Assembly: GCA_003707115.1 (NCBI GenBank)
Contig: PPNB01000036.1
Coordinates: 1-59,984 of the forward strand
Source of the DNA: Tortispora ganteri
Lineage: Eukaryota
DNA length: 59,984 nt
Reading direction: 5' to 3'
Shown here: in pieces, positions 31,666-59,807 of the stretch
How positions within the stretch are numbered: position 1 is the stretch's first letter
How the letters are laid out: each line of letters starts with the position of its first letter
Position numbers and translations under genes: made by a program
Notes under the pieces: model-generated
What the model was told of the DNA's origin: nothing
Database searches by the model: none
What the model saw: only the letters and a program-made list of their open reading frames with translations

Positions 31666-31785
31666 GGATTGCAGCACCTACGATTCCACTGTGGTCTCCC
31701 ACCAGAGTACTAAGCAGGCTCTCAGCAGCTTAACTACAGTTGATCGGACGGGGAACGGTGTTTTCTGCTGGATATGGCCGCAACC
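31666..31785 (-). rRNA. RDN5: 5S rRNA gene (dispersed copy)
   Basis: Minus strand GGTTGCGGCCATATC...CCGTCCGATCAACTGTAGTTAAGC...AGTACT...GGTGCTGCAATCC, 120 nt, with intact helix I. Confidence 0.97.
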
Positions 31786-54120: not shown

Positions 54121-54221
54121 AGGATTATAGAGATTTATAGCTTTTTATTAAAAGTAGTAAGAGAAACTTGTGCGATCAAGTAAATACACCACAATAAGAA
54201 TAAAAGGGTGTAGAACATTTG

Positions 54222-54298
54222 AGGGTTTAGGGTTTGTATATTAGAGAAGGCGTACTATATAGGGTTACAAAGTTTGTCCTAGCAACATAAAAGGGTTT
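54222..54298 (+). promoter_or_regulatory. AGGGTT telobox/Tbf1-like cluster upstream of RPS4
   Basis: agggtttagggttt 54222-54235, tagggtta 54260-54267, aagggttt 54291-54298. Confidence 0.55.
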
Positions 54299-56585: not shown

Positions 56586-58232
56586 CTACAAAGAAAACTC
56601 CTCGAGCCATGTGAACGCTTCGGGGCGGTTATCGGAAGGATCGACTGTTGAATCACGAGAAGATGCACGTCTAGGACTAATGTGCTTCTCCTTTAAAGGT
56701 GTGTAAACGGCTTTAGCGGCCTTCTTGCACTCCGGAGTCACAGGGGCATTGTACTTGTCAAAGTTATCCCAGTCGATCCCTTTAAAGAACGAATGTCTCT
56801 TGATTTCGAATGCATCATCCTTGACAACCGTATACGCAGGCGCTTGCCTATAGCTGTTGACAAGTGCATCCACAAAAAAGCCTTGTTCAGATGTGTATGC
56901 CCCGCATCCAAGTCTTTCCTTTCTACGCACCAAAAGGCGGCTCAAGAAATCAACTTCCACGTTAGACGATAACGGGAGAACTTTGAAGTCCCTTCGCTCA
57001 AGCACTTTCTCCGTTCTATACATGAGCATTTGCGCCTGTTGATCCTCTTTTTTTCGATGGAATCGAGGGTCATACACTGGATTGCGATTATACCTGATCA
57101 AATACAAACACATTCCAACAGACCAGTAATCAGATCGGCCGTCATAGTAGTCTCCCGACAATGCCTCAGGGCTTTCGTACCCGATAGTGCCTAATCTGCC
57201 TTTAACTGGTATACTAAATTCAGTGCTCTGACTCGCCCTAATTTCTCCGTCAGGAGAACAATCCACATGGGACACACCAAAATCAGCAATTTTAATATGT
57301 CCTGAACGATCAACAAGGAAGTTCTCTAGTTTGATGTCACGATGCAGGATGCTAAGATTGTGCAATTCTTCAACAGCTAGAATCATACCACATGCATAAA
57401 AACGAAGCATGTCTTCAGTAACTTGGTTGTGCACTATAAGATCTCCAAGTAAGTCGATTATATTTCCCCCGTCACAAAAATCCAGTACAAATAACATAGA
57501 AAAGTCAGTGCGAAAACAGGCATGCATACGTACTGAATAGGCACTGTTATTCTTTTTCAACTGTATTAGTACTTTCTTTTCACATTCGACTGCCTTCAAT
57601 TGAGAGGGTCTATGCAATACTGACTTTCTGACACTTTTTATAGCGCATAGATTACCCGAAGGAAGATATTTAGCCAAAACAACTTTTCCAAATCCGCCTT
57701 CTCCTAGGTCTGCTCCATAGTAAAAATGAGCAAGCGATAGTCGGCATAGAGGGCTACGATTAGGAAGAACGGAGGTCTTCCCAATATTATTCGGAAAAAA
57801 TGACTTGTTTTCAGCTTCTGTAAATTTTGGAGAGACTCCCGAATCAGAAGTGAAAGGCGTATTATCAGTACTGTTGAGCATTTTATCCCATGAAGAGCCT
57901 TCAGAAGGATCGGAACCAGCATGGTAGGCTGGAGGAGAAAAATCACCGAATTCTTCCTCTTTTTTGCAATCTTTTTTGAGAGAAACGTTTGTATTATCGA
58001 CATGATAAGTGAGGAAAGGCAGGGCTCGAGAAAGAAATTGCTCACATTTAGACATAGGAGGGAGAGCATAACAAGATGCACCATTTGAGTCGCAGTTCAC
58101 GCTACCGGTGACATTAATACCATGTAGTTTAGCTGCGTTTAAAGTAGACCTTTCTCTGTAAGAGGACATGAACTGTGGATCTTTATGACTATGTAAAAAC
58201 TGAACCTGAGAGCTTTTCGAAGAAAAAGCCAT
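56586..58232 (-). CDS. Divergent AGC-group Ser/Thr protein kinase
   Basis: GEGGFGKV, AIK, HRDIKLEN, DFG, GTIGYESPE, DYWSVG, AGC tail EIKRHSFFKGIDWD..AP.TP. Confidence 0.85.
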   Translation of the reverse strand: MAFSSKSSQVQFLHSHKDPQFMSSYRERSTLNAAKLHGINVTGSVNCDSNGASCYALPPMSKCEQFLSRALPFLTYHVDNTNVSLKKDCKKEEEFGDFSPPAYHAGSDPSEGSSWDKMLNSTDNTPFTSDSGVSPKFTEAENKSFFPNNIGKTSVLPNRSPLCRLSLAHFYYGADLGEGGFGKVVLAKYLPSGNLCAIKSVRKSVLHRPSQLKAVECEKKVLIQLKKNNSAYSVRMHACFRTDFSMLFVLDFCDGGNIIDLLGDLIVHNQVTEDMLRFYACGMILAVEELHNLSILHRDIKLENFLVDRSGHIKIADFGVSHVDCSPDGEIRASQSTEFSIPVKGRLGTIGYESPEALSGDYYDGRSDYWSVGMCLYLIRYNRNPVYDPRFHRKKEDQQAQMLMYRTEKVLERRDFKVLPLSSNVEVDFLSRLLVRRKERLGCGAYTSEQGFFVDALVNSYRQAPAYTVVKDDAFEIKRHSFFKGIDWDNFDKYNAPVTPECKKAAKAVYTPLKEKHISPRRASSRDSTVDPSDNRPEAFTWLEEFSL

Positions 58233-58604
58233 GTATCAGATAAGAAAAGTGAAACAAAGAGTGAGCTATGCAAATTGAGAAGCAAGGAGACTATAAATGC
58301 AGGCAGCTAGATTTAAAGTCCCTATAACCAAAGAGTTGAAAATACGAAGAGAACAAAAACTTGAAGCTGAGCTTGAAAGAGCAAAAACCTCCCGTGGATC
58401 AACAGGGCTAGTAGGTGCAAGATTCAATATAGGTGTATCACAGCACTTGGAGATAGTGTAAGTAATAAGTAAAAGAAACTGAATCAAATAAAATGAAGAA
58501 GTGCGCAGAGGCAAGAGGGGTTTAATAGCATCCAAAGTTGAGTGATATGCGCTTATACCAAGACCATGAGGTAAAGTAATGGTACGGGTTATTGAATCCG
58601 GCCA

Positions 58605-58965
58605 CAGCTCAAAAATAGCAAGAATTCAGGGCACACTTAGTGCTGGATTTTTCTCTAGAAAGTAAAAGCTAAACAAGGAAACCCTTGTTAGGATATAGAA
58701 GCCAATAACGTCGGATAATGGAGCAGTACGATCGGTCATCAACTACAAAAAGTAGTAGGGAATGAGTTAGCACTACTATAAGGTAGGTCAGGGTCCATAT
58801 TAGGGTCCGAGTGGTAAACTAAAAGGTCTTAGGCGAGTATATACTCGTTCAAGACCTCAAACCAAAGCTTTCTAAAAAATAGCCATCCGTAAGAAGCCCT
58901 GAGGTCTCGATGCAAAAAGTGCAAACGGTCCCCCAAATCGACCTAAAGGGGGCAAAACCTGCAAT
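58605..58965 (-). ncRNA. Putative structured non-coding RNA of unknown class
   Basis: At least five inverted repeats, one long-range helix and an Sm-like site within about 360 nt of ORF-free DNA. Confidence 0.3.
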
Positions 58966-59219
58966 TCCAACGACAGAAAGCAAAAGCATGTACAAAACTA
59001 TTATGCAATTATCACGATGAAATAATGATCATAGAGAAAGTTTGCTTAAAAAATATGTTTCGAATGATAGACAGAAAAGATTACCCAGTGATATGCTAGC
59101 AGAGTAGCACAGCCGCACTAGGTTTGGGTAGAATGTACGAGGCAAAATGCGCACGTAAGGAAAGTGTTTAAAATAGAAGTAAATTTTTCAATTAGACATT
59201 ATATAGATACATTCAATAT

Positions 59220-59807
59220 CTAAGACCTTAGTGCTCTCAATCTCTCACCGAGATTATCTTCCTCAACTTCAGTTGGTTCAACTTTGGAACTGGGTGCGCT
59301 TTGCATGTTCTGTTTCATCTCTAAACCAGCTTCGTCTGCGACGCTCTGCATCAACAGATCTACCTCATCCTGTGGCACCGATATAGCTGCTGCTTGTCCT
59401 GTAGCACCTTCATAGTAAGATGTAGAAACATCTAAATCTTCAAATTGGGTCTCAAACTTATCCATGATCTGAGAAATCACTTCTAAATTCATATTCTCCA
59501 TTGCTCGATCCATGCTTCTAACTACTTGTGCCATATTTTTGCTTAGAGTCTTCATAGTAACTGCAGTCTGAACTCTGCTAGCTACTGAATCAATCCTAGA
59601 TGAAAGCCTTAATAAATTCATACGCTCGGATTGTTTTCTTACTACGTTCTCTGCATATATTCTGGCGATGTCACTGTTACCTTCTTGGATTGCTTTCTTA
59701 ACTTTCTTCTTCTCGACCTCTATTTCCCTAGCGGTCTTCGATGATTGTGATTTCAGCTGCTTAGCTGTAAATTTCAGTTGGAATAACGAATTTTCTAATC
59801 CCGACAT
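59220..59807 (-). CDS. DID2: ESCRT-III accessory protein Did2 (CHMP1)
   Basis: [49 protein letters not shown]1 [10 protein letters not shown]. Confidence 0.96.

Follow-up and report, generated by a model that had tools for sequence, protein, structure and literature searches.

A candidate box C/D snoRNA locus in Tortispora ganteri with likenesses to snR45/SNORD13 and to telomerase RNA

The box C/D snoRNA SNORD13 (U13) occurs in vertebrates and plants, with a single-antisense form in Diptera, and its yeast counterpart is snR45 of S. cerevisiae. According to the available parts of PMC5464676 and bioRxiv 2022.05.12.491732, a bipartite antisense layout defines snR45 and SNORD13; the latter source gives 18S-A as the most important antisense element in human SNORD13. 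The accessible portion of PMC9226516 describes the family as untraceable in fungi beyond budding yeasts, and that of PMC4138321 reports TBF1 motifs upstream of C/D snoRNA genes in several yeasts.

We analysed a 59,984-nt stretch of Tortispora ganteri DNA (contig PPNB01000036.1; hereafter the window), in which a 987-nt gap between DID2 and the gene for a 548-aa kinase, both on the minus strand, holds a candidate RNA locus present as a single copy in the genome (Table 1). A Tortispora caseinolytica protein shares 99% identity with the DID2 product; for the other matches listed the identity is at most 67%. The kinase is extended by 170 aa at its N-terminus and evolves rapidly between sister organisms: of the 38 changes listed, 14 affect a first or second position of a codon. 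A first-pass annotation had read the interval as a compact telomerase RNA (TER) or other Sm-class non-coding RNA, and all seven of the elements it had listed on the minus strand proved to be there. One of them, the GCAC/GTGC hairpin, is present but shares 2 nt with the 3' arm of the long helix and has a pair probability of 0 in the long fold, while a 12-bp helix (58879-58868/58662-58651) had gone unlisted. Rfam searches at E up to 10 gave only chance-level matches at the locus, and none with the RNase MRP, RNase P, SRP, U1, U3, U4 and U5 models, each of which was found elsewhere in the genome. No similar RNA was found at 67 metagenomic DID2 loci (best blastn E 0.54), which gave one weak kinase match only. 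Within the literature on Tortispora and the yeast TER surveys that we searched (PMC6115765 included, sources available in part and subscription papers largely outside the search), the locus is not described.

Table 1 Features of the candidate RNA locus and its neighbours, in minus-strand order (window positions)
Feature	Positions	Strand	Basis
DID2/VPS46 (Snf7 family) gene, upstream neighbour	59220..59807	-	ORF, Pfam Snf7
Upstream hairpin, CCCCC/GGGGG stem, not in the first-pass annotation	58921..58963	-	Fold of 58915-58965, z -0.94, not significant alone
5' arm of long-range helix, partner 58632-58626	58896..58902	-	Pair probability 0.95-1.0
12-bp inner helix, 5' strand, partner 58662-58651	58868..58879	-	Pair probability 0.82-1.0
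34-nt hairpin, -15.1 kcal/mol	58824..58857	-	Pair prediction
72-nt segment, equal length but diverged in sister organism	58752..58823	.	Pairwise alignment
1.5-repeat GGACCCTAATATGGACCCT	58790..58808	-	Single occurrence in genome
Weak TATA-like box TTATAG, -37 from proposed start	58776..58782	-	Promoter comparison
Pyrimidine/U run CUUUUUGUAG	58743..58752	-	Comparison with own 18S end
Box C core UGAUGA, preceded by U (not purine)	58736..58741	-	Motif
CCUUGUU, also 3' strand of 18-nt hairpin 58689-58672	58672..58678	-	18S AACAAGG pairing
13-nt antisense (2 G-U) to 18S helix 44 strand just 5' of GUAACAAGG	58657..58669	-	
4-bp/5-nt hairpin, P6.1-like, loop UAAGU	58631..58643	-	
3' arm GCCCUGA of long helix, its end being box D CUGA (58629-58626)	58626..58632	-	
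Sm-like UAUUUUUGA	58609..58617	-	8/9 identical to own U1 Sm site
Ser/Thr protein kinase gene, 548 aa, downstream neighbour	56586..58232	-	ORF, Pfam; syntenic in sister organism

Like SNORD13 and snR45, the locus has boxes C and D and is probably transcribed independently by Pol II; ahead of box D it carries an antisense to 18S GUAACAAGG, and its box C is preceded by a U-rich element complementary to the 3' strand of helix 45. Unlike those RNAs, it has no 18S-A 5' element and its host rRNA has no target CCG, its internal guide is paired in a hairpin rather than displayed in a loop, it carries an extra 13-nt antisense to helix 44, and neither C'/D' boxes nor an Rfam match were recognised. Because the CCG, 18S-A and a free guide are absent, box D is paired in the long fold, the excess of rRNA complementarity is marginal and the long helix and 34-nt hairpin are left over, we do not file the locus as a member of the SNORD13/snR45 family. 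With fungal TERs (Yarrowia, Malassezia, S. pombe TER1, N. crassa TER) it shares the order of enclosing helix, boundary hairpin, C-rich 1.5-repeat and Sm-like site, as well as a 4-bp stem with a 5-nt loop; it differs from them in length (~300 nt versus ~950 nt in Yarrowia and ~500 nt in Malassezia), in showing no detectable triple-helix pseudoknot, in a loop that is not NUNGN, and in that the template region is the least conserved. Like the Tbf1-type (TTAGGG) promoters of yeast snoRNA and ribosomal protein genes, in which the site is often tandem, it has a CCCTA ~60 nt upstream of the proposed start, but its TATA-like box is weak and the binding factor is putative.

Judged from its sequence, the locus has about an even chance of being a box C/D snoRNA gene; that it is the snR45/SNORD13 counterpart we put forward more tentatively, as possible. 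A box C (UGAUGA, with U at the R position of RUGAUGA) and a box D (CUGA) were found, and the interval between them includes 58678-58657, which pairs with the organism's own 18S across the helix 44/45 junction. Here CCUUGUU forms seven Watson-Crick pairs with 18S GUAACAAG, having the same core as 18S-C of SNORD13 and GS2 of snR45; this antisense core agrees with human SNORD13 at 7/7 positions in a hand comparison, and the internal duplex with 18S ranks 9 among 5996 overlapping 40-nt windows. Ahead of box C, CUUUUUGUAG makes 9/10 pairs, three of them G-U, with the 3' strand of the organism's own 18S helix 45 and, together with the next 5 nt, is identical to the human SNORD13 5' element at 13 of 15 positions, again by hand (the human SNORD13/18S duplex being taken as printed in the available part of the PMC9226516 supplement). 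This run would serve as the pyrimidine stretch before the start, as 5' antisense to helix 45, or as both. An 18S-B-like element is present before box C and 18S-A is absent; a GS1-like UGACCUACC at 58790-58782 is like snR45 5' ends at 8/9 positions (those given in the accessible part of PMC5464676), fits the organism's own rRNA poorly, and falls inside the segment that has diverged in the sister organism.

Within the window, a rule of the SNORD13 type, requiring 5' antisense, C box, internal antisense and D box, is matched at the locus and nowhere else; shuffled windows give 0.13 matches each, and 349 kb of other loci give none. When a pattern was fitted to the locus itself, it gave three matches in the genome, two of which lie elsewhere and overlap ORFs, versus none for the reversed control. 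Rfam models and the 30 of 78 motif matches inspected brought up no better snR45/U13 locus in the genome; at the locus, the Rfam snR45 and snoU13 models gave no match, and the only C/D match was at chance level (E 0.23). CCUUGUU is locked in its own hairpin, with a probability of being unpaired of 0.06-0.07 in all three folds; for box D that probability is 0.01 in the long fold and 0.7 if the RNA starts at 58760. Taking a canonical 2'-O-methylation guide to be a 10-21-nt rRNA antisense abutting box D or D', we found none abutting box D (best match 8 nt), and an 18S antisense of 12-13 nt that precedes a non-canonical D'-like UAGA/GAGA, with no C' recognised. The excess of rRNA complementarity overall is marginal, with five matches of at least 13 nt versus 1.3 expected (P 0.03) and none of at least 14 nt. 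The U-rich stretch at 58657-58669 also matches 15 nt in an apparent LSU intron, so the helix 44 antisense may be due to chance. As a guide target that 15-nt LSU match was rejected, since it lies in what reads, from its context, as an unannotated group I intron. Rfam recognises five group I introns in the rDNA (L111:903-9809), and the LSU apparently has one or more besides.

Helix 45 of the organism's own 18S carries CUG in place of the acetylated CCG, together with compensating base changes and an altered loop (L111:6638-6700, G000:C1034), and canonical acetylation there is therefore impossible; the CCG of helix 34 is kept. Helix 45 likewise has no CCG in U. maydis and T. thermophila, according to the available part of the PMC9226516 supplement.

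At the locus, a CCCTAA site is followed by a weak TATA-like box and then by a pyrimidine run, with spacing close to that in the organism's own small RNA promoters. All four Pol II sn/snoRNA promoters examined (U1, U3, U4, U5) have CCCTA/TAGGG 57-101 nt upstream in either orientation, against a background of 15 in 226 non-coding 60-nt pieces. In each there is also a TATA-like box between -41 and -53, and 14-20 of the 20 nt just before the start are pyrimidines. With +1 set at 58744, the locus shows CCCTA at -61, TTATAG at -37, 16/20 pyrimidines and box C at once; the TATA-like box is weak and 4-16 nt nearer the start than in those promoters. Such an arrangement, at thresholds of our own choosing, precedes one of the 46 UGAUGA in the window, the one at the locus. 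Tandem CCCT units are also usual in the U3, U5 and RPS4 promoters, which accounts for the '1.5 repeat' at the locus: GGACCCTAATATGGACCCT would be either a tandem pair of CCCTRA (Tbf1/Tay1-type) sites or a TER template for TTAGGGTCCATA, and the 72-nt segment around it either the promoter core of a small RNA or a TER template region. The caution, entered with the first-pass annotation, that TTAGGG might be a Tbf1-type site gains support from the organism's own snRNA promoters.

Several observations arose alongside this comparison. Sites of the TTAGGG/CCCTAA type are common to the U1, U3, U4, U5 and RPS4 promoters (L144, L145, L285, L286; window 54220-54290), and CTACTAC adjoins the site in U1, U4 and the studied locus. 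The U3 snoRNA has an apparent spliceosomal intron after its first 13 nt (L145, G000:C679:~111100), and a dispersed 5S rRNA gene lies in the window at 31666-31785 (minus strand), outside the rDNA contig. At the locus, a branch-point-like GCTAAC (58771), a pyrimidine tract and TAG (58745-58743) directly precede box C on the minus strand, and a 19-codon ORF (58798-58739) overlaps them; an intron-split snR45 was considered and rejected, as no canonical splice donor was found upstream. UACGGAUGG at 58891-58883 (minus strand) resembles the P3 loop of the organism's own RNase P and MRP. A likeness to the P3 domain had prompted an RNase MRP reading, which we rejected as well: MRP and RNase P lie elsewhere and the flanking loop sizes misfit P3.

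The fold of the region is strong. The 306-nt stretch reaches -83.7 kcal/mol (z -3.67), with none of 100 shuffles equally stable, and 58605-58904 has the best fold when the 60 kb is sampled in 196 non-coding windows of 300 nt (98 places on two strands, on a grid that happened to begin at 58605), the next-best locus having z -2.8. High pair probabilities were obtained for the 7-bp arm, the 34-nt hairpin, which carries a palindromic TATATA (58843-58838), the 18-nt hairpin and the 12-bp helix. Of 2384 control duplexes, 3 are as strong as the one formed over long range by 58915-58860 and 58670-58612 (-36.3 kcal/mol). What was observed is real and exceeds casual chance. What had been claimed of the stretch in general, a structured non-coding RNA locus at 58605-58910, is plausible from the predicted fold, the single copy and the absence of a sister indel; a TER is a candidate identity for it.

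We compared the locus with a sister organism (90-95% alike), one 7.2-kb contig of which spans kinase to DID2 in the same order. None of the nine intergenic indel rows of the alignment falls in 58582-59047 (P 0.03-0.14 for the depletion; for the interval of the first-pass annotation it is weak, with P 0.036, or 0.10 if indels are clustered). A single internal break, at 58752-58823, is of equal length and diverged, possibly through an inversion, and contains the entire proposed template. It begins right after the 34-nt hairpin, the alignment resuming exactly at 58824, and extends to the first U ahead of box C; from 58751 through box D the alignment holds with no indel. The 40 substitutions listed, of 184 between the sisters, all lie outside the locus. 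Given that 24 of 160 third codon positions of the kinase gene differ from the sister, the 72-nt segment is probably evolving no more slowly than neutral sequence. Two further sequencing runs, possibly from the same source as the DNA, show no difference within the locus.

An alternative reading is that of a compact TER of ~300-450 nt, with its 5' end at ~59050-58910 and its 3' end immediately beyond the Sm site at 58610, in which TERT would pair the end of the chromosome with the 3' GGACCCU, copy as far as the 34-nt-hairpin boundary and so add TTAGGGTCCATA, Sm proteins protecting the 3' end. Such an RNA, templating a 12-nt TTAGGG-extended repeat, with a template that changes between sisters and without a recognisable pseudoknot, we consider unlikely; in a bolder version, one RNA may combine a TER core with C/D boxes. 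The elements do follow the order known from TERs, within an enclosing helix that is strongly predicted, the 12-bp and 7-bp helices being candidates for it and the former the would-be core-enclosing helix. The 34-nt hairpin would be the template-boundary stem; it is strong and stops 15 nt short of the repeat, and in the MFE structure it is prolonged by 4 bp to within ~4 nt of the repeat. An Sm-like site near the 3' end matches the organism's own U1 at 8/9 positions, although UAUUUUUGA may instead be a U-rich 3' flank; ATTTTTG occurs 20 times in the window. Repeat, upstream hairpin and Sm-like site occur together in none of 60 shuffled windows and nowhere in 349 kb of other, partly redundant loci, at thresholds fixed after the locus had been seen; the CCCT-containing 1.5-repeat alone is common, at 0.97 per shuffled window, and a second one in the window lies at 54235, upstream of RPS4. 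A TERT gene is present in the genome, and the indel-free sister block spans 58582-59047. TTAGGG with a 3' extension also fits the TTAGGG-plus-extension repeats of deep-branching yeasts (PMC12449055, in its available part), a Malassezia TER of ~480-500 nt with an Sm site has been proposed (PMC12506658, likewise), and no TER is reported for Tortispora in the literature searched, the accessible part of a telomere-repeat survey and its supplement (PMC7857110) giving a repeat for Trigonopsis vinaria and none for Tortispora.

Against the telomerase reading, no (TTAGGGTCCATA)n array was found in the assembly, in which no telomere array of any motif was seen. A 30-mer of the predicted repeat has no match there, a 16-mer with one mismatch allowed matches only the locus itself, and a 9-mer is not enriched (32 matches versus 51 for a control); the repeat is likewise absent from metagenome contigs. 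Telomere arrays were found neither among the matches listed in triple-motif scans (7/7; 100/146; 100/116; 100/160), nor at 70 large-contig ends (41 starts, 29 ends), nor in ~30 of the 1044 small contigs. In small contigs, (TAGGGACAGTCG)n looked telomere-like and was rejected as a coding TVPT repeat; variable (TVPT)n resembling a telomere array occurs in a multi-copy family of Ser/Thr-rich surface-protein-like genes (L033:2-658 and related small contigs). Several large-contig ends and many small contigs carry a multi-copy element that is rich in CCAAT boxes and shows periodicities of 20 and 47 bp, a candidate for a centromeric or subtelomeric repeat (L086:860-1058, L121:1250-1500, L095, L146-L158). 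The missing pseudoknot, already conceded in the first-pass annotation, was not recovered: between the repeat and the Sm-like site (58789-58610), a crude search for H-type pseudoknots, which excluded bulged stems, found nothing better than shuffles (43%, 45% and 31% as good). The P6.1-like loop UAAGU is without the U of NUNGN, and its stem, which competes with the 3' arm, is unformed in the long fold. A CR4/5 or three-way junction with a P6.1 NUNGN loop is of the vertebrate, Pezizomycotina and Taphrinomycotina type, and we know of no such loop in budding-yeast junctions. NUNGN is the P6.1 loop consensus in the available part of PMC3592445. The Telomerase_Asco model gave no match, its control being silent everywhere too. 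The template-bearing 72 nt is also the sole internal break in the alignment with the one sister organism, which tells against the template conservation expected of a TER among close relatives: in Yarrowia TERs the template is the most conserved part (PMC6746865), while TER templates vary within some genera (PMC8211666; both sources available in part). Finally, the repeat is well explained as a promoter site.

Two further readings concern the structure. The stretch may hold some other structured RNA or UTR (a ~300-nt non-coding RNA, a snoRNA precursor, a kinase 5' UTR or a DID2 3' extension), which we judge somewhat unlikely. It is consistent with the fold being strongest for the whole 300 nt (z -3.67) rather than for its halves (-0.31 and -1.02), with a z of -2.6 (mononucleotide shuffles) being retained without the 34-nt hairpin, and with RNase MRP, RNase P, SRP, U1, U3, U4 and U5 all lying elsewhere; but no family, partner or covariation favours a particular function, and the boxes and promoter-like spacing would be left to chance unless the RNA were a precursor, a snoRNA with a structured 5' leader cut by RNase III. 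Structured snoRNA leaders cut by RNase III occur in S. cerevisiae. Quite improbable, in our estimate, is that no functional RNA is made and that a promoter or terminator region with Tbf1-type sites and a DNA palindrome serves the kinase gene, fold and boxes having arisen by chance. The lack of an Rfam match, the weak indel depletion in the interval of the first-pass annotation and boundaries picked for their fold would suit this reading, against which stand the first place among 196 windows, with a margin over the next locus, and the coincidence of two independent motif sets at one locus. The snoRNA reading itself accounts for neither the long helix nor the 34-nt hairpin, unless a longer precursor is transcribed; the fold of the 141-nt snoRNA body is not unusual (z -0.31).

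As a box C/D snoRNA gene, the locus would be transcribed after a Tbf1/Tay1-type factor bound the 'template' repeat as a promoter element; Pol II would initiate near 58744-58755, giving an RNA of ~125 nt, on whose boxes C and D the core C/D proteins would assemble. By analogy, the RNA would most likely work like SNORD13 and snR45, pairing with the 18S 3' minor domain in pre-40S particles during 40S assembly, where it could be a folding chaperone of the 18S helix 44/45 region or else a decaying relic of an acetylation guide.

Were the locus a TER, it would give Tortispora a telomerase RNA and a telomere repeat, neither of which the literature searched has for this genus; the RNA, from an early-branching budding yeast, would be a natural example of a minimal fungal TER and shorter than those described in that literature. 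On either reading, a genome scan can mistake the TTAGGG-type promoter sites of small RNA genes for TER templates. If the locus is instead the counterpart of snR45 and SNORD13, it would extend a family that could not be traced in fungi beyond budding yeasts in the available part of PMC9226516. An acetylation guide would then have been kept in a yeast whose ribosome lost the acetylated cytidine, which would offer a direct test of a second, chaperone role for these snoRNAs.
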